Shown one piece after another: positions 4,848 through 60,477 of a DNA stretch of 64,000 bases (the stretch's first letter is position 1; each line of letters opens with the position of its first letter). The position numbers and the translations under genes were made by a program. The DNA comes from Candidatus Falkowbacteria bacterium (GTDB taxonomy: Bacteria; Patescibacteriota; Patescibacteriia; CAIXNZ01), in contig CAVZGV010000006.1 of NCBI GenBank assembly GCA_963774955.1, forward strand, positions 90,855 through 154,854, in the 5' to 3' direction. The notes under the pieces are model-generated. The model did no database searches and was not told the DNA's origin. It saw only the letters and a list, made by a program, of their open reading frames with translations.

Positions 4848-4975
4848 CCGAACTTTAGACTTTTAACTTTATACTTTAAACTTATAAAAAGTGTGGGAGC
4901 TTCGGCGCCAAAACCACGCAATACTACTACCCTATTAAATAAAGACGGTGTATTGCGTATACATCGTTTTTTGTA

Positions 4976-5054
4976 TCTACAGATTACAGATAAGTACAGA
5001 TTTACAAATACATCAGCCGAAATCTGTATATCTGTATAGATCTGTAATCTGTAG
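4976..5054. repeat. long imperfect palindrome of 'tacaRat' units in the rplK-rplA spacer
   Basis: Left arm tacagattacagataagtacagatttac; the right arm is its near reverse complement (gaaatctgtatatctgtatagatctgtaatctgta). A related copy lies at 39898..39972. Confidence 0.6.
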
Positions 5055-5101
5055 AAGTATTGCAACCTAATTAACCTAATATAACCTAAATAAACCATCC
5101 T

Positions 5102-5947: not shown

Positions 5948-6484
5948 ATGGCTGAAGAACGTAAACATTATCGCCCAGGCTGGGATGATTATTTCATGGC
6001 AATTGCCAAAATAATTTCCAGCCGTAGTACTTGTGATCGACTCTATTCTGGTGCGGTATTAGTTAAAGATAACCGAATCATTGCCACTGGCTATAACGGA
6101 GCGCCGCCTGGATTGCCCCACTGTCATGACGCCGGACATTTATTGGAAGAAACTCACTGCATTAGAACAATCCATGGTGAGCATAATGCCTTGCTGCAAG
6201 CTGCGGTTTTAGGCGCAACTAGCACAGTAGGTTCAACAATGTACACCAAATATGTCCCCTGCATGCATTGTTCCAAATATGTGGTAGCCTGCGGAGTCAA
6301 ACGAATTGTCTCAGCCAGGGTCTATCGGGCAGCCCAGGCAATTGAATACTTGGAGCAAGCCGGTGTTCAAGTCGATATTTATCAGGAAAATCCAGAATGG
6401 AACGAAGAATTAGAACTGATTTTCTCTGAAGGGATCCCTGAAAGAATTAATCACGGCGCAATTAAATTAGAAGAAAAGAAATAA
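5948..6484 (+). CDS. comEB: deoxycytidylate (dCMP) deaminase, ComEB-type
   Basis: Cytidine/dCMP deaminase zinc motifs: HGEHNALLQAA (H-x-E) and YVPCMHCSKYV (PC..C). Confidence 0.8.
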   Translation: MAEERKHYRPGWDDYFMAIAKIISSRSTCDRLYSGAVLVKDNRIIATGYNGAPPGLPHCHDAGHLLEETHCIRTIHGEHNALLQAAVLGATSTVGSTMYTKYVPCMHCSKYVVACGVKRIVSARVYRAAQAIEYLEQAGVQVDIYQENPEWNEELELIFSEGIPERINHGAIKLEEKK

Positions 6485-6496
6485 CCATCACAGTTT

Positions 6497-7057
6497 ATGT
6501 CAACCAATAAAATAATTCTGGGCTTTGTCGGACCGATTGCCTCGGGCAAAGGTACTGTCTGCCAATATCTCAAAGAAACATATAACACGGATATTTTGCG
6601 CTTTTCGACCATGCTGCGCGATGTGTTAAACCGTTTTTACATCGAACAAAGCCGGGAAAATATGCAGGTCCTGTCTTCATCTTTGCGCCAGATTTTTGGC
6701 GATGATTTAATGGCTAAGACTATAGCCAATGATGTCAATCATTCTGAAGCAACAATTATTGTCTTGGACGGAGTGCGCCGCCAAGCAGATATAAAATACT
6801 TAAGGGAACTACCGGATTTTCATCTGGTGGAAATAAACGCTGACCAGAAAATTCGCTATGAACGAATTACCAAACGCGGTGAAAATTCAGACGATATCCA
6901 AAAAACCTTTGAGGATTTTCAGGCTGATGAGCTCAAAGAAGCCGAACTGCAAATTAAAGACGTGGCTAAAACCGCCGAATTTCACCTTGATAATAATGGC
7001 AGCAAAGAAAATCTTTATAAACAAATAGAAGACATTATTAAAAGACTTCAATCATAA
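6497..7057 (+). CDS. adenylate-kinase-family nucleoside monophosphate kinase (specificity unknown)
   Basis: P-loop GPIASGKGT and an NMP-binding-like VLDGVRRQADIKYL. Sits inside the dCMP deaminase / ThyA / tmk cluster. Confidence 0.5.
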   Translation: MSTNKIILGFVGPIASGKGTVCQYLKETYNTDILRFSTMLRDVLNRFYIEQSRENMQVLSSSLRQIFGDDLMAKTIANDVNHSEATIIVLDGVRRQADIKYLRELPDFHLVEINADQKIRYERITKRGENSDDIQKTFEDFQADELKEAELQIKDVAKTAEFHLDNNGSKENLYKQIEDIIKRLQS

Positions 7058-7061
7058 TTTC

Positions 7062-7781
7062 ATGTCCTGGCCCAAATATTATACCAACCAAATTCTGATC
7101 CCCTCCGCTGATGGCTTTATCGGCATAGTTTCTGGCTGGACCAAGAAAGAACATATTGAAGAATTAATAGCCAGCGAGAATAAAAGTAAAGTCGGCGCTA
7201 TCGGCCAATTATACAGCAAGGAAGGCATAAACTACATTATTCGCAATCTTTTTTTAAATCCCAAAATGACTCGGCTGATCGTGACCGGCAGAGATTTATC
7301 AGGCAGTGTGAAATTTTTCCAGGAATTTTTAACTAACGGCACGGGGCAAGAAATTATTCACCAAGAAATACCCGCTGAAAAAATTCAAACCTTTATTGAC
7401 TGGTTTAAAACAAATACCGATTTTATTGCCGAAGAGGACTTGAATAAAATATTAAATGAGATTCAGGCTCCGGCCAGCTCCTGGATTTCTGACATAACCG
7501 AATTTCCCGATCCGGCCCAGCGTGAAAACATTGATTTCCCTTCTGAAGCAATCTGTTTTCGTCTGGAAGATAAAAAAATTGCCGATCTCTGGCTGAAAGT
7601 TTTAGACCGAGTTCTAAAATTTGGCGTTAATAAAATGAGCCAGTATTCAGAGATGCAAAGAGAGCTGATCAATATTACGACAGTAATCAACGACGAAGAT
7701 CCGGACAACCCTTTTTTACCCGAGCATCTTTATTTTAATCTCACAAGATCTGGAAAATTATTATCCGCAATTAATGACTGA
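7062..7781 (+). pseudogene. N-terminal extension plus first part of a thymidylate synthase (ThyA)-family gene, ending at a frame break
   Basis: The last ~70 aa (ADLWLKVLDRVLKFG...) align to the ThyA N-terminus (YLELMQKVLDEG...). The ORF stops at a TGA overlapping the ATG of the next fragment (aATGACTGA). The first ~165 aa are an unassigned domain. Confidence 0.45.
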
Positions 7782-8450
7782 CCATGTTTTTGAAGGCGTA
7801 GAATATACTTATGGCAGCCGTTTTCGAAATTTTAACGGCATTAATCAGATTGAAGCCTTAATTAAGGATTTACAGGCCAATAATTACAGCCGCCGCGCCA
7901 TTGCTTTTACCTGGGATGTCATGAAAGATACCGGCAATCCCAAAAGCCCTGTATCAACCTGGTCAATGCCTTGGTCCAGGGAGATAAAGTCTATCTGACA
8001 ACCTATATCCGTTCCAATGATATGTACCGCGCCTGGCCGCAAAACGCCTTTGCCTTAAGAAAAGTTCAAAAGGAAATTGCTGATGCCTTGGGTATAAAAA
8101 TGGGCAAACTCTGTATAATTTCCAATTCAGCCCATATTTATGAACGCGATTTTTTGGCTGCTTCGGAAATGGTGGAAAAACACAAACCGCAGGCTGAATG
8201 CATCCAGGATCCGCGCGGCAGTTTCGCTCTGGCAGTTGAAGACGGAAAAATAGTCGCCAGCCATTTTTCTCCCGACGGCCAGTTTATCCAAAAATTTGAA
8301 GGTCAAACTGCCACTGAAATCAACAACCAAATTTTTACTTACATTTCCGAAATCCTGCATGCCCTGGACTTAGGCCGTGAATTAATGAAAGCGGAATTGG
8401 CCTTGAAAAATAATTTGTCTTACACCCAGGATCGGGAACTAAAAATTTAA
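7774..8450 (+). pseudogene. thyA: thymidylate synthase (ThyA)-family gene body, interrupted by a -1 frame change near 7935-7950
   Basis: Frame +1 gives YGSRFRNF...SRRAIAFTWD (ThyA YGKQWRAW...SRRIIVSAWN). The catalytic P-C (KPCINLVNALVQGDKVYLTTYIRSNDM, cf. APCHAFFQFYV...LYQRSCD) appears only after shifting to frame 0 around caatCCCAAAAGCCC. The gene is therefore read in frames 0, +1, 0 across three ORF fragments. Confidence 0.6.
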
Positions 8451-8459
8451 GTTAACATT

Positions 8460-9134
8460 ATGGCCCAAGGAAAATTTATTGTCATCGACGGTACTGACGG
8501 ATCTGGTAAAGCCACCCAGACCAAATTATTAGTGGACAAATTAAGCCAAAATAATTATCCGGTCAAAATGATAGATTTCCCCCAATACGGGCAAAAATCA
8601 GCAGGTTTAGTCGAAGAATATTTAAACGGCAACTATGGAGCAGCCCTTGAAGTCGGGCCTTATCGAGCCTCAATTTTTTATGCTTGTGACCGTTACGCAG
8701 CTGCCCCGCAAATAAACGACTGGCTAAATCAGGGCAATCTGGTAATTTCCAACCGCTATGTTTCCTCAAACATGGGGCATCAGGCCGGCAAAATTAAAGA
8801 CGAAACCGAAAGAGACAAATTTCTAGACTGGCTTTTTGATTTGGAATTTAACATTTTTAACATACCTAAACCAGATTTAAATATCTTACTTTATTTGCCT
8901 CCAGAAATCGGGCAGGAACTGGTTGATAAAAAAGGCAGCCGCGATTATGTCGGCGGCCAAAAACGGGATATTCACGAAGCTGATTTGCAACATTTAATCG
9001 ACGCCGCAGCAGCCTATAAATATGTAGCGGACAAATATAGCTGGAAGACCATAAATTGCGCGCCGGATAATGAATTAATGAGCATTGAAAACATTCACGA
9101 TTTGCTCTGGTCTGAAATAAAAAATATTCTCTAA
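8460..9134 (+). CDS. tmk: thymidylate kinase
   Basis: P-loop FIVIDGTDGSGKATQ and DRY motif (YACDRYAAAPQ); 224 aa. Confidence 0.85.
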   Translation: MAQGKFIVIDGTDGSGKATQTKLLVDKLSQNNYPVKMIDFPQYGQKSAGLVEEYLNGNYGAALEVGPYRASIFYACDRYAAAPQINDWLNQGNLVISNRYVSSNMGHQAGKIKDETERDKFLDWLFDLEFNIFNIPKPDLNILLYLPPEIGQELVDKKGSRDYVGGQKRDIHEADLQHLIDAAAAYKYVADKYSWKTINCAPDNELMSIENIHDLLWSEIKNIL

Positions 9135-9274
9135 GGTAACCCCTTCTTACTCTTATTACTCCTCTTCCCCTTCTCACGATTTTTTGCTAAACTTATACTA
9201 TATTTTGAACCGATAAAGCAACCCAATAAAACCTTATATAGCTTAATATAACCTTATATAACCTCTAAAATTTT

Positions 9275-9883
9275 ATGCAAACCAAACAAGGAAAATTCAT
9301 TGTCTTTTACGGCGTCAATAATCTCGGCAAATCTACTCAGGCCAAAATGACCGTGGAAAATTTAATTATAAAATCAGGAAAAGAGGCTGAATATCTCAAA
9401 TACGCTATTTATACACAGGAACCTTCCGGGACATTAATTACTTCTTATCTGCGCGAACGTAATCCTTACAATTTAACTGCGCGGGAATTTCAATTACTCC
9501 AGGTTTTAAACCGCACCCAATATGAACCAAAACTTAAAAATAAACTAGACAAAGGCACCTGGATTGTGGCTGAAGATTATATTGGTACCGGTGTAGCCTG
9601 GGGCATTGCTCAAGGCATGGAAAAAAGTCTGCTTTACAAACTCAATTCTCATTTAATAAAGGAAGATCTGGGTATTCTTTTCGAAGGTGAATCTTTCCAA
9701 AACAGTGAGGATAAAAAAAATATCCACGAAAGCGATCGGGCTTTACTGGCTAAAGTCAATGAATCATTCAAGGAAATTGCCCGTGATTTCGGCTGGCATA
9801 CGGTCAATGCCAATCAGCCGATTGCCACTGTCCAGCAAGAGATCATGGACATTATCAAAAGTAAAATAACATTTATTGAATAA
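9275..9883 (+). CDS. thymidylate-kinase-like paralog with the DRY motif replaced by EDY
   Basis: P-loop FIVFYGVNNLGKSTQ. The region aligning to the Tmk DRY motif reads IVAEDYIGTGVAWG (Arg replaced by Glu). Confidence 0.5.
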   Translation: MQTKQGKFIVFYGVNNLGKSTQAKMTVENLIIKSGKEAEYLKYAIYTQEPSGTLITSYLRERNPYNLTAREFQLLQVLNRTQYEPKLKNKLDKGTWIVAEDYIGTGVAWGIAQGMEKSLLYKLNSHLIKEDLGILFEGESFQNSEDKKNIHESDRALLAKVNESFKEIARDFGWHTVNANQPIATVQQEIMDIIKSKITFIE

Positions 9884-34321: not shown

Positions 34322-34927
34322 TTAAGCGTAACTATATTTTCTAATTACGGCTCTGACAACGCCCTGAACAGTAACATTTTTGGCGAAAATCGGTTTCATC
34401 GTGGAATTGGCCGGCTGTAACCTGATCCGATTAGCTTCTTTATAAAATTTCTTCAGGGTGGCAAAAGAATTATCCAGCAAAGCCACAACTACTTGTCCGT
34501 TAGCCGGATGTTCATTTTTTTCCACCACCACATAATCGCCATCAAATATACCTTCATCTATCATTGACTGGCCTTTAACCTTCAAAACATAAGATTGGGA
34601 CTCATTTTTTACCAAATCAGCAGGCACCGCAATTTTATCCTTCTGTTCCACTGCCTCAATCGGCTGACCAGCGGTAATTAAACCGGCTAAAGCTAGAAAC
34701 ACGGCTGAAGCCTTTTCATTTTCTATAACTTCAATAGATCTGGCTTCATTAGGATCGATTTTTAAATAGCCCTTTTCTTGTAAAGTCTGGATATGCTCAC
34801 AAACGGTGGCCGTTGAAGATAGTCCGAAGTGATCGCCGATTTCACGATAACTCGGTGAATATCCATATTCGGCCACAAAGGCGTTAATGTAATCGATTAT
34901 TTCTTTTTGTCTTTTGGTAAGGCTCAT
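34322..34927 (-). CDS. lexA: LexA repressor
   Basis: N-terminal wHTH, Ala-Gly cleavage site (ALAGLI) and S24 Ser/Lys dyad (KVKGQSMIDEGIFDGDYVVV ... TLKKF). Confidence 0.85.
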   Translation of the reverse strand: MSLTKRQKEIIDYINAFVAEYGYSPSYREIGDHFGLSSTATVCEHIQTLQEKGYLKIDPNEARSIEVIENEKASAVFLALAGLITAGQPIEAVEQKDKIAVPADLVKNESQSYVLKVKGQSMIDEGIFDGDYVVVEKNEHPANGQVVVALLDNSFATLKKFYKEANRIRLQPANSTMKPIFAKNVTVQGVVRAVIRKYSYA

Positions 34928-35000: not shown

Positions 35001-35357
35001 TTATTTAACCGAGCGAATCCACGCATTTAACATTTTACCTGCTTCATTCGCTAATCCAATTGCTTTATTATAATTTTCTTTTAGTAGATAGTTTAAATCG
35101 AAACTTAACAACAATTGGTATTTCAATTCCTCCAAAGAACCCATTGAGTATGAATAAAATACAAATTTATCTTTTCCCCTACGTCTAAATCCTTCGGAAA
35201 TATTTGACGGTACAGACACCGCAGCTCTTCTCATTTGTGAAACCAAGCCAAATTGTTCATCCTTAGGAAATTCCATAGTTATTTTATATACCAGTAAGGT
35301 TAACTCGTGCGCCCGTTGCCAAACTCTTAAATTTTGAATTGAGTTTAAATCAGTCAT
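35001..35357 (-). CDS. four-helix-bundle protein (family commonly found in 23S rRNA intervening sequences)
   Basis: 118 aa: LRVWQRAHELTLLVYKITMEFPKDEQFGLVSQMRRAAVSVPSNISEGF, typical of the four-helix-bundle / 'S23 ribosomal' family. Confidence 0.7.
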   Translation of the reverse strand: MTDLNSIQNLRVWQRAHELTLLVYKITMEFPKDEQFGLVSQMRRAAVSVPSNISEGFRRRGKDKFVFYSYSMGSLEELKYQLLLSFDLNYLLKENYNKAIGLANEAGKMLNAWIRSVK

Positions 35358-36383: not shown

Positions 36384-36477
36384 AATTTCAAGTTATTTTT
36401 AGACTTTCTTTAATTATAGCAAAAATCTTGACAAAGTACTATTTTTCAGCTAACTTATATATATTAAGGGGGTAAAG

Positions 36478-36696
36478 ATGGCCACGAAAAGTAAAAAAAA
36501 CAGGCCTAAAAGTAATGAGTTCAAAAAACCAGGCAAAAAACGGCGTAAATCAAAAAAGGGTTGTTTGCGCTGTGATAAAGATTTTAAATCTCAGGGTATT
36601 TACAACCGGATTTGTCCTGAATGCCGCACCAGCAATGAAAAAGTATCTCCTTATGCCTTGCCGGAAAATTATCCGGTGCATCAACCTGAAAAATAG
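36478..36696 (+). CDS. small lysine-rich zinc-ribbon protein (paralog 1)
   Basis: 72 aa with a basic N-terminus, then KKGCLRCDKDFKSQGIYNRICPECR (CxxC...CxxC). TTGACA promoter at ~36431 and RBS aagggggtaaagATG. Confidence 0.55.
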   Translation: MATKSKKNRPKSNEFKKPGKKRRKSKKGCLRCDKDFKSQGIYNRICPECRTSNEKVSPYALPENYPVHQPEK

Positions 36697-36704
36697 GAGG
36701 AGTT

Positions 36705-36941
36705 ATGCCACGCGGCCGTAAACCGAAAAGAAAAAACTGGGTCGAGAAAAAACAACCTCCCAGCCAAACTTGCCAAAACTGTGGCCGAAAATTCTGGCCC
36801 AAAACCGACAGTGATACCTGCTTATTGTGCTTGAATGGGATCATTAAACCACAGGGTAAAAATATTCCTGTACTCACAGAATTAGACAAGGCTAAACAGG
36901 AAAATCAAAAAGACAAACGCCCCTGCCTGCGTTGTCAAAGG
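36705..36941 (+). pseudogene. small lysine-rich zinc-ribbon protein (paralog 2), 5' part, interrupted by the IS insertion
   Basis: MPRGRKPKRKNW...KRPCLRCQR, then the IS left inverted repeat begins. The ORF-track tail (ELMIFEMNIPAKVIVSVIFA) is read-through into IS sequence. Confidence 0.7.
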
Positions 36942-37998
36942 GGGTATAAGGGGTCCAAACTGGTTGGTGAATTAATGATTTTTGAAATGAATATACCAGC
37001 TAAAGTAATTGTTTCTGTTATCTTTGCTTAATCCTGAATGCTGGCGATACAATCTTTTTAAACGAGAAAAATATCCTTCAAGTTTATTCGTTGATTTGGC
37101 GATATTCGGATTATCTAAATAATGGAACATGTCGGGCAAGGCATGAATTACTAAGCTTCTAGTTCTTTGCAAATCACTAAAGACTTTGTGGTTACAGTCG
37201 AGTCTTGAAACCGCTTTGCCGAATTTTCTTTCCCACTTATGAAAATCTGAAATAAATTTATGTTTTTCCGGATAATTGTTAATGTTTGTTACCGCCAGTA
37301 ATATCTTGCGTAATTGTATCGATGGCTCCAGTTTAGGACGCATTCTTAACCAAGATAATCCCTGCCTCTGGATATGAACGATACAGCGCTGTATTACGAT
37401 ATTCGGCCATGCGTCCTTTAAGGCTCTAATTACGCTAGTATTACCGTCAATTGTAATGGCTGTAGGCTTGATTCCTTTATCTGACAGCTCCTTGAACAGC
37501 TCAAGGGCGGCAAAGTAATTTTCACGCCTTAAATACCTATTTGTGATGATTTGGCCATTGGCATTATTCATTGCCAGCATTAAGCAATTCATGCGGTGGA
37601 AATATGTACCATCAAAAAGCAGATATTTTATTCCGGTTTGTACGTTTAAAGGGCTCGGTAATTTTGCGAGCCAATAACTGATTATTCCCTTAATTGTTTT
37701 CCTGCTGTGGTGGCTAATTCCCGAAATTTGCCTGACTGAATATCCTTCGGCTATCCATAATTTAAACCATTTAAGTTGGCGGTTCAATTTATTCTTTGCA
37801 TTGCGGAAAACAAACAGTCGATTGCACTTCCCGCACTTGAATCTTTGCCGTCCGCAATCATTTTGGCCATAAAAAATTACATTATTAGAGGAGCAATCTG
37901 GACAAGTTTTTTTTCATAATATTGAACCAGTTTAATATTAAGTATCAATTTTAATCTAACCTTAACAGAAATTTTGTCTTTTCACCAACCAGTTTGGG
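36942..37998 (-). mobile_element. IS1595-family-like insertion sequence (1057 bp)
   Basis: 29-bp imperfect terminal inverted repeats (GGTATAAGGGGTCCAAACTGGTTGGTGAA at 36942-36970; reverse complement of 37970-37998 is GGTAAATGGTACCCAAACTGGTTGGTGAA). Flanking 7-bp direct repeat CAAAGGG (36935-36941 and 37999-38005). Single transposase gene inside. Confidence 0.85.
36972..37916 (-). pseudogene. IS transposase: N-terminal zinc ribbon plus DDE domain, with a frame change in an A8 run
   Basis: ATG at 37916, then A8 (37906-37913). Frame +1 continues KKTCPDCSSNNVIFYGQNDCGRQRFKCGKCNRLFVF (IS1/IS1595-type zinc finger) in frame with the 271-aa ORF. C-terminus NKLEGYFSRLKRLYRQHSGLSKDNRNNYFSWYIHFKN resembles the IS1595 DDE tail (N.xEG.wS.LKR...G.yH..S...L..Y..Ef.fryN). 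Confidence 0.8.
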
Positions 37999-45124: not shown

Positions 45125-45514
45125 TTATTGGGATTTTTTTCTTTTCTTAGCTTCCAGCGCACGAATTTCTTTTTCATTAAGCCCTAAGTGGTGGCCGACT
45201 TCGTGCCATACGACTTCATAGATTAATTTTTTCAATTTATCCTCGTTACGACCGGCGAATGCCTCTATTGATTTTTGAAAAATGGTAATTTTATCCGGTA
45301 ATACGCCAAAATATCCGGAATCGCGTTCTATCCGCGGAATACCCTCATAGAGCCCTAAGAGCGTTTCGTCAACTCTGATTCCGATTTCTTGCGCTTTTTT
45401 CCTACGCGGATTTTGTTCAATTACAAAAGAAACATTATCCATAGCTTCTTGGATATGGCGCGGCATTAAGGCAATAGCATCGCACACTAATTTTTCGAAT
45501 TCAAATCTCGTCAT
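45125..45514 (-). CDS. small zinc-metallopeptidase-like protein (HExxH)
   Basis: VVWHEVGHHLGLNE near the C-terminus. Start trimmed to MTRFEF because the longer ORF overlaps the upstream transporter gene. Confidence 0.45.
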   Translation of the reverse strand: MTRFEFEKLVCDAIALMPRHIQEAMDNVSFVIEQNPRRKKAQEIGIRVDETLLGLYEGIPRIERDSGYFGVLPDKITIFQKSIEAFAGRNEDKLKKLIYEVVWHEVGHHLGLNEKEIRALEAKKRKKSQ

Positions 45515-45609
45515 AATAATTTCCGACGATTCACAAATTTTTACATTTTTTCCTTGGAAGATTAAAAAATGCAAACATCTACCAATCAAACTAGTGATAA
45601 TTATAATTC

Positions 45610-46572
45610 TTAGCCTCTGATAATAAGAGTAATAATATAAATTAAATAAATTGCGATAAAGCCAGCGCCTTGCCAACGTTCCAGGATTCTTTTTTGGCCT
45701 ACAAACATGGCCAGAAAAAGCAAAACAGTCGCTAAAATCGCCATTAAAATATCTTGATTTAAAGCAGGAGTAAATGGCAATGGTTTGATAATAGAACTTA
45801 AACCTAAAATCCAAAAAATATTAAATATATTAGAACCGACAATGTTGCCAATAGCAATGTCGGCATTTTTTTTGTAAGCAGCCATGGCAGAAGTGGCAAG
45901 TTCAGGCAAGGAAGTACCAATAGCCACTATGGTTAAACCAATCAAAGATTGGCTGACACCTAAACTAGTAGCAATGCTGACTGCTCCATCAACGATCCAT
46001 TTACCGCCGATTGTTAAACAAAGTAAACCTCCAATAATCATCAGAATTGAAGTTGATATTTTATGTTCTTTTACACCTTGTTTTTCTGTTTCAACTCCCT
46101 TACTAATACCATGAGTATAATAAAGAAAGATCGCAAAAAAGCCGATTAAGATTAAACCATCAATTCTTGTTATGACTGAAAAATTAAAACCGTCTATCAG
46201 CGCGTCATTTGCCATTAAAGCCATAGCAATAACAGCTAAAAGGGCCAATGGGATTTCTTTCCAAGTAGTATTATTTTTAACAGCTAAAGGATATATTATA
46301 GCTGATATCCCAAGGATTAAAAGAATATTGGCGATATTACTGCCTAAAATATTGCCAATGGCAATATCCGTATTGCCCTGGATGCTGGCAAAAATATTTA
46401 CAATCAGTTCTGGGGCAGACGTGCCAAAAGCCACAATTGTTAAGCCAATCGCTAGCGCAGAAATGCCAATTCTTTTTGCCAAAGAAGACGCGCCATCAAC
46501 CAGCCAATCAGCACCTTTGATTAAAACAACAAAACCGAAAACAAAAAGAATGTAAGTTAAGAGTTGGTACAT
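45610..46572 (-). CDS. Ca2+/cation antiporter (CaCA family)
   Basis: Two alpha-repeat signatures (GTSAPELIVNI..., GNILGSNIANILLILG, GTSLPELATS..., GNIVGSNIFNIFWILG). Confidence 0.8.
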   Translation of the reverse strand: MYQLLTYILFVFGFVVLIKGADWLVDGASSLAKRIGISALAIGLTIVAFGTSAPELIVNIFASIQGNTDIAIGNILGSNIANILLILGISAIIYPLAVKNNTTWKEIPLALLAVIAMALMANDALIDGFNFSVITRIDGLILIGFFAIFLYYTHGISKGVETEKQGVKEHKISTSILMIIGGLLCLTIGGKWIVDGAVSIATSLGVSQSLIGLTIVAIGTSLPELATSAMAAYKKNADIAIGNIVGSNIFNIFWILGLSSIIKPLPFTPALNQDILMAILATVLLFLAMFVGQKRILERWQGAGFIAIYLIYIITLIIRG

Positions 46573-59163: not shown

Positions 59164-60477
59164 TTATATTTCCTTTAAAATTTCTCTAGTAGCGATTCTA
59201 TCATCCCATGGGTATTCCTGACCATTAGATTTAATGCTCTGTTCTGTCCCCTTGCCCGTAACTAAAACCAAATCACCGGGCTGGGCCAGCTGACAAGCAT
59301 ATTTAATTGCCTCTCGGCGATCAATAATTTTAAATAAATTCTTATTTTCGACTTTACCTGCGCTAATTGCTCCGCTAGCAATCTCGTTCAAAATTTTTGA
59401 AGTTTGTTCATCATAAGAGTCTTCGTCAGTAACAATACTGATATCTGCCTGTTCTCCTGAGATTCTGCCTAAAAGCGGACGCTTGGCATGATCCCTGACC
59501 CCGCCGGCTGAACCAAAAACATGAATTATACGATTTTGGGGAAACATTTTTATGGTTTTAAAAAGATTATCAAAAGAAACAGGGTCATGAGCATAATCAA
59601 CCAACACGCTAAAGTCCTGACCTTCATCAATAACTTCCATGCGTCCGGGCACACCGGTTACTTTGACTAAAGCCTGTTTACACTGATTTAAATTCAGACC
59701 AAGCTGCAAACCGACACAAATTGCTGCCAGGCAATTATATACATTAAATCTGCCAATTAATTTTGTCTTTATATCTTCAGTGCCTACCCGAAAAAAAGAT
59801 CCATTAACCTGCAAATTTATATCCCCGGCTAAAACCACCCGGGCCTCAGGCAATTTGCTGACAAAACTGATGCCGTACCCGAATTTCTGATCCGCCGAAA
59901 AATTAAAATAATACTGCCAATGCTGATCATCCAAATTAACGACCAAAGCCTTGGGAATTTCTTTACCGTTAATTTTCTTTCTGGGAAATTTGCTTAAACC
60001 AGCAAAAAGCTGCCCCTTGGCTTTTTTATAATTCTCAAATGAGCCATGGGCTTCAATGTGTTCTGGCGTCAAATTAGTAAATACCGCCACATCATAATTT
60101 ATGCCCCAATTACGGTTTTGCATAATGCCTTCTGACGAGGTTTCCACGACGGCATATTTACAACCGGCTTTAACCATCTGTTTCAGCATTTTCTGCAAGG
60201 TTAAACGGCCCTGCATGGTTTTATGAGTATCGTTGATCCATTCTTTATCAGCTATTTTAAAATTAACCGTGGTCATCAAACCGACTTTGGCTCCAGACTC
60301 TTCCAAGACCTTAGCAATCAAATTGCTGGTTGTTGATTTGCCGTTGGTGCCGGTAACCCCGATAACAATCAGCTTTCTTGATGGAAAGCCATAAATGTAA
60401 TTAGCCAAAACCGCCCAACACTTATGGTAAAATAAGAGTAACTTTTGGGGAATTAGTTTTTTGATAAATGATTTCAT
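59164..60477 (-). CDS. murE: Mur ligase family, likely UDP-N-acetylmuramoyl-tripeptide synthetase MurE
   Basis: ATP-binding GVTGTNGKSTT and Mur ligase middle and C-terminal domains; 437 aa. Confidence 0.75.
   Translation of the reverse strand: MKSFIKKLIPQKLLLFYHKCWAVLANYIYGFPSRKLIVIGVTGTNGKSTTSNLIAKVLEESGAKVGLMTTVNFKIADKEWINDTHKTMQGRLTLQKMLKQMVKAGCKYAVVETSSEGIMQNRNWGINYDVAVFTNLTPEHIEAHGSFENYKKAKGQLFAGLSKFPRKKINGKEIPKALVVNLDDQHWQYYFNFSADQKFGYGISFVSKLPEARVVLAGDINLQVNGSFFRVGTEDIKTKLIGRFNVYNCLAAICVGLQLGLNLNQCKQALVKVTGVPGRMEVIDEGQDFSVLVDYAHDPVSFDNLFKTIKMFPQNRIIHVFGSAGGVRDHAKRPLLGRISGEQADISIVTDEDSYDEQTSKILNEIASGAISAGKVENKNLFKIIDRREAIKYACQLAQPGDLVLVTGKGTEQSIKSNGQEYPWDDRIATREILKEI

Follow-up and report, generated by a model that had tools for sequence, protein, structure and literature searches.

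A probable dTTP-synthesis operon of a Parcubacteria-type bacterium with two private frame changes in its three-domain thyA homologue

Five co-directional genes lie on the + strand at positions 5948-9883 of the window, the 64-kb stretch of DNA analyzed here. On balance, we regard this cluster as an ordinary, conserved dTTP-synthesis operon of a Parcubacteria-type (Patescibacteria/CPR) bacterium, in which thyA carries two private indels with an artefact as their likeliest cause. In order, they specify dCMP deaminase, a dNMP-kinase-like protein, a split ThyA homologue, a canonical Tmk, and lastly a second, divergent Tmk-like protein.

The gene cluster and its conservation

The first-pass annotation had described five co-directional pyrimidine deoxynucleotide genes, and both the open reading frames and the family profile matches across the cluster (PF00383, AAA_17/ADK-type kinase, PF00303 plus PF14251, and PF02223 twice) bear this out. 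The features are as follows.

5948-6484, + strand: ORF of 178 aa, dCMP deaminase (ComEB/Dcd type); HGE and PCMHC zinc motifs; PF00383, 76.6 bits
6497-7057, + strand: ORF of 186 aa, P-loop protein resembling (d)NMP kinases, archaeal UPF0200/AdkA-like type; PF13207/PF00406; PRK08356, 78 bits
7062-8450, + strand: thyA homologue (MtrA-like + ThyA + DUF4346) with two single-base indels; 462 codons once repaired
7062-7781, + strand: thyA fragment 1, ORF of 239 aa, frame 0
7774-7998, + strand: thyA fragment 2, ORF of 74 aa, frame +1
7971-8450, + strand: thyA fragment 3, ORF of 159 aa, frame 0
8460-9134, + strand: ORF of 224 aa, Tmk1, canonical M. tuberculosis-type dTMP kinase; PF02223, 70 bits; NF005923, 121.6 bits; PDB 1g3u, E 2.3e-18
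9275-9883, + strand: ORF of 202 aa, Tmk2, divergent Tmk-family paralogue; P-loop GVNNLGKST; EDY replaces DRY

The surrounding genes are housekeeping genes, with secE/nusG/rplK/rplA upstream of the cluster and gatB downstream. The order rplA-dcd-kinase-thyA-tmk1-tmk2-membrane protein-gatB was identical in the seven closest relatives (L001/L002, L003-L006, and L082), all of which carry an intact thyA with 67-85% ThyA identity, and a similar order was found in L030, L060, L068, and L076. In every one of the 81 relatives examined (Patescibacteria and DPANN archaea), thyA came out as a single HSP in a single frame. Of the two readings offered earlier, one was ordinary dTTP synthesis with thyA in decay or mis-sequenced; operon conservation, the intact gene in all 81 relatives, and the retention of conserved residues support it.

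In the proposed pathway, the deaminase would convert dCMP to dUMP, and the methanogen-type ThyA, whose N-domain is MtrA-like and whose C-domain is the pterin-associated DUF4346, would convert dUMP to dTMP with a presumed one-carbon carrier. The dTMP would then be phosphorylated by Tmk1, while the dNMP-kinase-like protein and Tmk2 probably serve other (d)NMPs. Neither folA nor folC was present in the 64-kb window, and the Mur-ligase ORF at 59164-60477 is MurE.

The deaminase scored 144 bits against TIGR02571 (ComEB), under the cut-off of 219, and matched phrog_174 (dCMP deaminase) with an E-value of 1.5e-46. The kinase-like protein matched PDB 3lw7/3h0k (E 4e-14) and phrog_139, deoxynucleoside monophosphate kinase (E 6.7e-20). 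Each of the two proteins matches one half of the anti-phage dCTP deaminase, a kinase-deaminase fusion (NF041025; PADLOC dCTPase). In the window, however, the genes are separate and in the reversed, deaminase-kinase order, with no single polypeptide. This identity was rejected, as the scores were 66 and 44 bits against an NF041025 cut-off of 400; the deaminase is nearer to the ComEB-type dCMP deaminase.

The three-domain ThyA homologue

When the thyA fragments were spliced, they matched intact proteins of 461-463 aa over 100% of their length (best 85% identity, E 1.8e-271), which indicates that the fragmentation is a real property of the window sequence and not a chance ORF pattern. The repaired protein comprises three domains.

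7062-7490, + strand: N-terminal MtrA-like domain, approximately aa 1-143
7566-8156, + strand: catalytic domain of thymidylate synthase (aa 169-366 after repair), covering both frame changes
8205-8432, + strand: C-terminal PterinBD-DUF4346 domain; PF14251, 59.8 bits, E 4.5e-16

The repaired protein has the ThyA fold and scores 65.4 bits against PF00303 (cut-off 24.3). The best family was TIGR03283 (thy_syn_methano), with 154.4 bits, an E-value of 2.7e-45, and 196 of 201 model positions covered, narrowly under the curated cut-off of 174.55. The likeness to these methanogen/archaeal-type enzymes lies in the ThyA fold, the catalytic Cys, the Arg, the Asn, and the His-x-Tyr. The CPR/DPANN protein differs from them by its added MtrA-like N-domain and DUF4346 C-domain and by its bacterial host, and the window's frame is broken twice. 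Set against canonical ThyA (E. coli/B. subtilis type), the window's protein, once repaired, retains YG..R, SRR, P-C, R-S-x-D, the uracil-specifying Asn, and H-x-Y, and B. subtilis ThyA (1bko) aligns with SRR, PC, RSNDM, P.N, and H.Y conserved. Identity to the canonical enzyme is, however, only about 27% across the domain's C-terminal two thirds, and the window protein has a much shorter N-terminal portion of the fold. Across the family the catalytic and dUMP-phosphate residues are invariant or nearly so: the Pro and Cys of the catalytic motif are found in all 81 homologues, and the Asn of the WPQN motif is invariant in a 71-sequence alignment. Fusions of ThyA with Tmk also exist (P0013, P0019, and P0020).

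An N-terminal extension of about 165 aa with unknown function had been noted before. The extension is indeed present and appears to be an MtrA-like domain, although the window's own sequence scored only E 0.066 (MtrA PF04208, PDB 5laa). MtrA is the corrinoid-binding subunit of methyl-H4MPT:CoM methyltransferase and uses a His ligand to bind the corrinoid; the window domain is instead fused to ThyA, outside any Mtr complex. As no invariant His was found in this domain across the 71-sequence alignment, MtrA-style corrinoid binding appears doubtful. The C-terminal domain of about 76 aa had escaped the first-pass annotation; this stretch also matched the C-terminal parts of two other models, NF002128 (a long MtrA model) and TIGR00284 (archaeal, DHPS-like).

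In the searched literature, no biochemical data on the enzyme activity of the three-domain family were found. A few relatives carry another ThyA or ThyX beside the three-domain gene, namely a canonical ThyA (L037), ThyA-fold paralogues (L040 and L053), and a Tmk-Tmk-ThyX fusion (L065), and for this reason it is not certain that the three-domain family acts as the sole thymidylate synthase.

The two frame changes and their likely cause

The spread of the ThyA-like gene over three ORFs in frames 0, +1, and 0, as annotated at first pass, was reproduced by the ORFs and by the alignments. An uninterrupted frame was obtained only with a +1 and a -1 correction.

7740-7743, + strand: frame change 1, CTCA where six relatives have one codon; one extra base, frame 0 to +1
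7744-7946, + strand: middle segment of thyA, conserved only in frame +1 (QDLENYYPQLMTD...SRRAIAFTWD...GNPKS)
7779-7781, + strand: TGA, first in-frame stop of frame 0, met after the extra base; ORF boundary of the first-pass annotation
7945-7949, + strand: frame change 2, AG-CCC against AG[T/C]CC[C/G/T] in relatives; one missing base, back to frame 0
7947-7952, + strand: Pro-Cys codons CCC TGT in frame 0, with the catalytic cysteine codon at 7950-7952

At site 1, DNA and protein alignments placed AAT CTCA CAA of the window against AAT AAA CAA-type codons in the six relatives. There is no homopolymer at this site, and the change from AAA, AAG, AGA, or GAA to CTCA amounts to more than one simple change. 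The first break had been put at the ATGACTGA overlap (7774-7781), but this is merely where frame 0 reaches its first stop, the extra base lying about 35 nt upstream. The second break, expected near 7935-7950 just before the P-C, was located as proposed: AAAAG-CCCTGT in the window corresponds to AAAAG[T/C]CC[C/G/T]TG[C/T] in relatives, immediately before the invariant Pro-Cys. As written, translation would end at the TGA, and the ORFs would yield no active enzyme because the catalytic Cys codon, together with the Pro codon, lies ahead of the TTG at 7971, where the third ORF has its first start codon.

Beyond the two indels, thyA showed no sign of decay. In a DNA alignment with six relatives, the only gaps not divisible by three were the window's two. 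The repaired protein retains the conserved residue in each of the 44 columns whose conservation among the 81 homologues is 95% or more, and dN/dS against L001 was 0.054, 0.052, and 0.065 in the three segments, compared with 0.03-0.12 in neighbouring genes. No other broken gene was visible in the 64 kb, where GyrB (676 aa), DnaE (1195 aa), ThrRS (585 aa), GuaA (534 aa), GatB, MiaB, ThiI, and MurE are all intact. It is therefore improbable that random errors arose twice, independently, at a distance of 205 nt, and one local cause is the better fit. Because further signs of decay are lacking in thyA and the indels are of opposite sign and bracket one stretch of about 205 nt, the most likely explanation would be a local sequencing or assembly artefact, with the gene intact in the organism. 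The complex change at site 1 is less typical of a plain base-calling error.

The main rival to the artefact reading is that the indels are real and that thyA was very recently inactivated, leaving a young pseudogene, with thymidine or dTMP supplied by a host or by an enzyme encoded outside the window. We consider this a serious possibility, though one we would not expect to be true. Relaxed selection acting on one dead gene would leave just this pattern, with two lesions in that gene and none elsewhere in 64 kb. The change at site 1 resembles a complex change and not a homopolymer slip, the ORFs as written give no active enzyme, and CPR bacteria are host-dependent nucleotide scavengers. Against recent inactivation stand the intact thyA in all 81 relatives and the retained residues and uniform dN/dS of about 0.06 in the three segments, which on a rough estimate have little power for a very young pseudogene. 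A search for thyX or thymidine kinase, as had been suggested, was also negative within the window; no ThyX or Tdk motif occurred in any of its long ORFs or in its Pfam survey, which likewise speaks against inactivation.

Tmk paralogues and less probable readings

Tmk1 has the features of a dTMP kinase: a profile match, a P-loop (DGTDGSGKAT) that contains an acidic residue, and a retained Arg in the DRY-type motif, where its NRY aligns with DRY. Its scores are nevertheless under the equivalog cut-offs (73 against 83.25 for TIGR00041; 121.6 against 193 for NF005923). Tmk2 likewise has the TMPK fold and matches PF02223, but it lacks the catalytic DRY Arg and the P-loop Asp (GVNNLGKST against G(V/L)DR(A/S)GKST in alignments to P. 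falciparum and human TMPK) and reaches 59.9 for TIGR00041, again under 83.25. Compared with type I, eukaryote-like TMPKs (P. falciparum 2wwf, human 1e2d, and vaccinia 2v54), Tmk2 has Asn-Asn in place of the P-loop Asp-Arg and EDY in place of DRY. Both substitutions are maintained across a large subfamily of Patescibacteria, and the altered active site is under strong purifying selection.

The three-domain protein of CPR bacteria and DPANN archaea might not be an ordinary folate-dependent thymidylate synthase. It might use another one-carbon carrier, possibly a domain-bound one of the pterin/corrinoid type, or might give a modified pyrimidine product, with the conserved Tmk2 subfamily that lacks the DRY Arg as dedicated or partner kinase. 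We consider this unlikely; it keeps some weight because TIGR03283 was narrowly missed, a ThyA or ThyX stands beside the gene in L037 and L065, and the site of Tmk2 is under selection. Still less probable is the narrower proposal that the three-domain protein acts as a hydroxymethylase of dUMP, or as a comparable enzyme, to which Tmk2, the extra kinase, or both are dedicated, a proposal independent of whether the indels are real. It could draw on the conserved non-canonical active site of Tmk2, on the 20 bits by which the TIGR03283 cut-off was missed, and on the additional ThyA, ThyA-fold, or ThyX proteins of L037, L040, L053, and L065. We know of no accepted sequence signature for dUMP hydroxymethylase chemistry, in which water is added instead of hydride being transferred. 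On the other side, the uracil-specifying Asn and the full thymidylate synthase catalytic set are invariant, the canonical Tmk1 directly follows thyA, and some species have ThyA and Tmk as a fusion. Members of the family are cellular, occur widely in CPR/DPANN, with a homologue (L028) in the cultured Minisyncoccus archaeiphilus, and sit in a housekeeping operon beside ribosomal protein genes. In a sequence comparison, thymidylate synthases scored 41.9 bits against the window protein, compared with 27.3 bits for hydroxymethylases.

The likeness to phage thymidine-hypermodification modules proposed at first pass thus found no support, given the cellular CPR/DPANN family, the housekeeping context, and the best match to the methanogen type. 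The T4 gp42 dCMP hydroxymethylase with gp1 dNMP kinase and the SPO1-type dUMP hydroxymethylase belong to phage modules, whereas the window holds a cellular housekeeping locus with Asn, not Asp. Viral contigs contained no three-domain ThyA, only ThyA-domain-only proteins of at most 40% identity. Two candidate assignments were rejected: dCMP hydroxymethylase, as the base-specifying position holds an invariant Asn and not Asp, and a phage or mobile-element context, as the operon, flanked by rplA and gatB, is conserved in cellular MAGs. The three-domain ThyA and the Tmk paralogue without the DRY arginine are of modest side interest.

Programmed recoding, in which ribosomes would shift +1 near 7740 and -1 near 7947 and so translate the unaltered sequence into the full-length enzyme, is extremely improbable. 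None of the 81 relatives has either shift, a lack of conservation that brings recoding close to refuted. By reading of the sequence, the incoming frame at site 2 contains no X_XXY_YYZ heptamer, and site 1 has no known +1 shift motif. Downstream of both sites, folding of the next 87 nt was no stronger than in shuffled sequence (z +0.27 and -0.17), and no Rfam frameshift element was hit. In favour of recoding, the opposite-sign shifts would restore exactly the conserved protein, and at site 2 a tRNA-Pro on CCU could in principle re-pair on CCC one base back. Any deletion inside the C-run would create the same possibility of CCU/CCC re-pairing.

Structure of the gene cluster and position of the frame breaks

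The ORF list, translations of the three forward frames, and Pfam and NCBIfam searches confirmed five co-directional genes at 5948-9883:

5948-6484, + strand: dCMP deaminase (ORF list and translations; Pfam/NCBIfam)
6497-7057, + strand: protein with P-loop NMP-kinase fold (ORF list and translations; Pfam/NCBIfam)
7062-8450, + strand: ThyA homologue in three pieces (7062-7781, frame 0; 7774-7998, frame +1; 7971-8450, frame 0)
8460-9134, + strand: Tmk, here Tmk1 (ORF list; Pfam/NCBIfam)
9275-9883, + strand: second Tmk-family protein, here Tmk2 (ORF list; Pfam/NCBIfam)

The first four genes are separated by 12, 4, and 9 nt, and 140 nt precede the fifth. The reading of thyA over frames 0, +1, and 0 was likewise reproduced in the ORF list and the translations. 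The spliced pieces aligned over their full length with intact proteins of 461-463 aa (best match P0001, 85% identity, E 1.8e-271), indicating that the fragmentation belongs to this sequence itself and did not arise from a chance arrangement of ORFs.

The break sites were placed by three alignments that gave the same result: one of proteins, one of the window DNA against its closest relative, and one of seven DNA sequences. The first frame change is one extra base at 7740-7743, where the DNA and protein alignments set AAT-CTCA-CAA in the window against AAT or ACC, a single codon (AAA, AAG, AGA, or GAA), and CAA in the relatives. The first-pass annotation had put this break at the ATGACTGA overlap; the alignments move it upstream, as the overlap holds the first frame-0 stop (TGA, 7779-7781), about 35 nt downstream of the extra base. 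Fragment 1 ends with 12 out-of-frame residues. The second frame change is one missing base at 7945-7949 (window AAAAG-CCCTGT, relatives AAAAG[T/C]CC[C/G/T]TG), immediately 5' of the invariant Pro-Cys, where the DNA alignments agree with the earlier placement.

We compared the gene with 81 relatives, 80 of them loci from Patescibacteria and DPANN archaea returned by a one-genome-per-species scan, and one from a metagenome scan. In 81 of 81, thyA was a single tblastn HSP in a single frame, and the two indels were the only gaps not a multiple of three in the DNA alignment with six relatives. The twice-broken thyA is private to the window sequence. No second copy of this sequence turned up when the 239-aa fragment, the kinase, and Tmk1 were each looked up for exact matches. 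The best match in the species-representative genome scan had 85% identity, and the sole match in a 38-mer scan of metagenome contigs was a 79%-identical relative. Tmk2 was recorded at 100% identity on a 294-kb contig (P0121).

Origin of the frame breaks

Stop-to-stop tiling and a Pfam survey of about 50 ORFs revealed intact GyrB, DnaE (1195 aa), ThrRS, GuaA, GatB, MiaA, MiaB, ThiI, MurE, and others in the window; the only overlapping ORF pair that raised suspicion (45125-46572) proved to be two different genes. The window sequence does not appear to be error-prone in general. As the 64 kb held no other broken gene, two independent random errors 205 nt from each other would have to coincide by chance, which we estimate at well under 1%, and a single local cause of both indels fits better. 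A mis-joined, read-sized assembly unit may be such a cause; with one indel at each of its ends, it would explain their opposite signs. A local sequence or assembly artefact is the reading that we favor, with slightly better than even confidence.

The other single local cause that fits both indels is a thyA just released from selection, in which case the indels would be real and the gene a very young, recently inactivated pseudogene. No decay of thyA was detectable, which argues against this reading, though with little power where a pseudogene is very young: of the 44 alignment columns with 95% or more conservation among 81 homologues, the frame-corrected protein kept all 44, and dN/dS relative to relative L001 was 0.054 before, 0.052 between, and 0.065 after the indels, similar to the neighboring genes (0.03-0.12). 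We regard the young pseudogene as possible but the less probable explanation. The private breaks are a cue to check the assembly or, at most, a sign that a host-dependent bacterium has a thyA pseudogene of very recent date. A recombination patch or assembly chimera as the origin of the 205-nt middle segment found no support; this segment is the most conserved part of thyA in all pairs of relatives, not just in comparison with one donor, and its higher nucleotide identity, being common to all pairs, gives no recombination-patch signal.

Programmed frameshifting that yields full-length ThyA is close to excluded. The shifts were absent in 81 of 81 relatives, the window sites carried no slippery heptamer and no known +1 motif, folding downstream of both sites was no better than that of shuffles (z +0.27 and -0.17), and no Rfam frameshift element was found. 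An alternative code with TGA as sense fails because, in the 160 nt that follow, frame 0 meets more stops that are not TGA, one of them TAA at 7833-7835; the long housekeeping ORFs of the window, intact under table 11, also count against it. Expression as three separate polypeptides was rejected because the third ORF has its first start at 7971, downstream of the catalytic Cys codon (7950-7952), and because fragment 1 closes with out-of-frame residues.

Domains of the ThyA homologue and function of the cluster

The repaired protein consists of three domains. Its N-terminal extension, noted in the first-pass annotation as of unknown function, is indeed present and appears to be MtrA-like: PF04208 gave no better than E 0.066 on the window's own domain, but 1.9e-15 and 1.5e-13 on the full-length homologues P0101 and P0113. 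The core (aa 169-366) matched PF00303 and the methanogen-type thymidylate synthase TIGR03283 (154.4 bits, E 2.7e-45), narrowly missing the cut-off of the latter (174.55). At the C-terminus (aa ~383-458) lies a previously overlooked PterinBD-DUF4346 domain (PF14251, E 4.5e-16). The catalytic set of YG..R, SRR, Pro-Cys, R-S-x-D, the uracil-specifying Asn, and H-x-Y is present, and is invariant or nearly so in the family. Natural fusions of three-domain ThyA with a Tmk domain, of about 690 aa, occur among the relatives (P0013, P0019, and P0020).

Archaeal UPF0200/AdkA-like proteins (3lw7 and 3h0k, E 4e-14) are similar to the kinase at 6497-7057, as are PRK08356 and phage dNMP kinases of phrog_139 (E 6.7e-20). 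Tmk1 is canonical, of the M. tuberculosis type. Tmk2 represents a distinct subfamily and is no simple duplicate. It and P0122-P0240 are members of a large subfamily of TMPK-fold proteins in Patescibacteria, in which YGxNNLGK(S/T)TQ and (A)EDY(I/V)GTG are conserved and the P-loop Asp/Arg and the DRY arginine are missing. Its members are named 'hypothetical protein' at NCBI and 'thymidylate kinase' at JGI.

The closest relatives (L001/L002, L003-L006, and L082) share the full order rplA-dcd-kinase-thyA-tmk1-tmk2-membrane protein-gatB, and a shorter version occurs in L030, L060, L068, and L076. As judged from its sequence, the locus probably serves ordinary dTTP synthesis, as a conserved operon of a Parcubacteria-type bacterium. 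The conserved operon and the privacy of the indels support the proposal in the first-pass annotation of ordinary dTTP synthesis with a mis-sequenced or decaying thyA. In some relatives, another thymidylate-synthase-type gene adjoins the three-domain thyA (coordinates of each relative's locus):

L037, 6906-7841, - strand: canonical 311-aa ThyA
L040, 6817-7770, - strand: divergent ThyA-fold paralogue (PPCLQR...RSRD...SLHLY)
L053, 486-1694, + strand: divergent ThyA-fold paralogue (PPCLQR...RSRD...SLHLY)
L065, 5412-8426, + strand: 1004-aa Tmk-Tmk-ThyX-like fusion

The presence of this additional gene in a few relatives and the narrowly missed TIGR03283 cut-off would suit the analogy, drawn in the same annotation, with phage pathways of thymidine hypermodification. 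However, the operon sits in a housekeeping context, the three-domain family is spread across cellular genomes, the uracil-specifying Asn is invariant, and thymidylate synthases outscored hydroxymethylases by sequence (41.9 vs 27.3 bits). The three-domain protein was not found in viral contigs, which held single-domain ThyA only, at no more than 40% identity, so that a phage origin of the cluster is not supported. The cellular distribution, the conserved order, and these viral contigs indicate that a CPR lineage carries this operon as a cellular housekeeping locus rather than as a phage-like module, and we consider hypermodification improbable. To our knowledge, no sequence test distinguishes dUMP methylation from hydroxymethylation. 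An anti-phage dCTP deaminase was also rejected, since the two halves of that kinase-deaminase fusion were each matched only in part.

An alternative source of dTMP, raised as a check in the first-pass annotation, was not found in the 64-kb window: the ThyX (RHRx7S) and Tdk P-loop motifs were absent from every long ORF, and the Pfam survey of about 50 ORFs contained no ThyX, Tdk, or DHFR. The window also held no FolC; a candidate at 59164-60477 was MurE.

The cofactor specificity of methanogen ThyA clades has been noted as unknown (PMC9012536), and thyA-folA coupling and folate exchange of CPR bacteria with their hosts have been discussed (PMC11974145). The searched literature contained no mention of DUF4346 or an MtrA-ThyA fusion in CPR/DPANN, nothing relevant on Patescibacteria thyA with dCMP deaminase or on a flavin/dCMP ThyA-like monooxygenase, and no biochemical study of three-domain ThyA or a Tmk2-type kinase. 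CPR/DPANN organisms mostly lack cofactor biosynthesis, yet they retain a protein in which two pterin/corrinoid-associated domains are joined to a thymidylate synthase of archaeal type, as well as another Tmk-like kinase whose active site has been rebuilt. The wider family is thus of some interest for the study of their metabolism. More work on the locus is merited only by the three-domain ThyA and by the Tmk2 subfamily; for the window itself, where the conserved housekeeping operon has the twice-broken thyA as its sole oddity, the finding is of little significance.

Further observations in relatives and in the window

The first two operon genes were mosaic among L001-L006 and L082 when compared with window 5948-7057. 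The window deaminase had 90% identity to that of L003 but only 42-45% to those of L001, L004, L005, and L082, whereas the kinase had 65-72% identity to those of the latter four and only 24% to that of L003. These identities suggest in-place gene displacement of the two genes.

P0095, found on three 2-5 kb contigs from ENA sample ERZ1426652, is a 260-aa ThyA homologue that is family-like up to '...FLYFNK', which ends within 1-2 codons of the window's first indel. The protein then continues for 34 unrelated residues before a stop that lies about 217 nt short of the contig end; an insertion element, a chimera, or coincidence may lie behind this. A search with the 34-residue tail gave no match.

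A hairpin at 4971-5062, in the interval from rplK to rplA, is long and almost perfect (MFE -38.5 kcal/mol, z -8.3 vs shuffles). It is a single local inverted repeat with no other copy in the window, matched miRNA-precursor models only, at sub-threshold scores, and might be an rplA leader/attenuator or a palindromic element. A Mutator-family transposase at 36972-37787 (- strand) is partial, covering profile positions 197-315 of 379, and is accompanied by short ORF fragments at about 36476-37031. Near it, a 23S-rRNA-intervening-sequence/bAvd-like protein (35001-35357, - strand) adjoins lexA (34322-34927).
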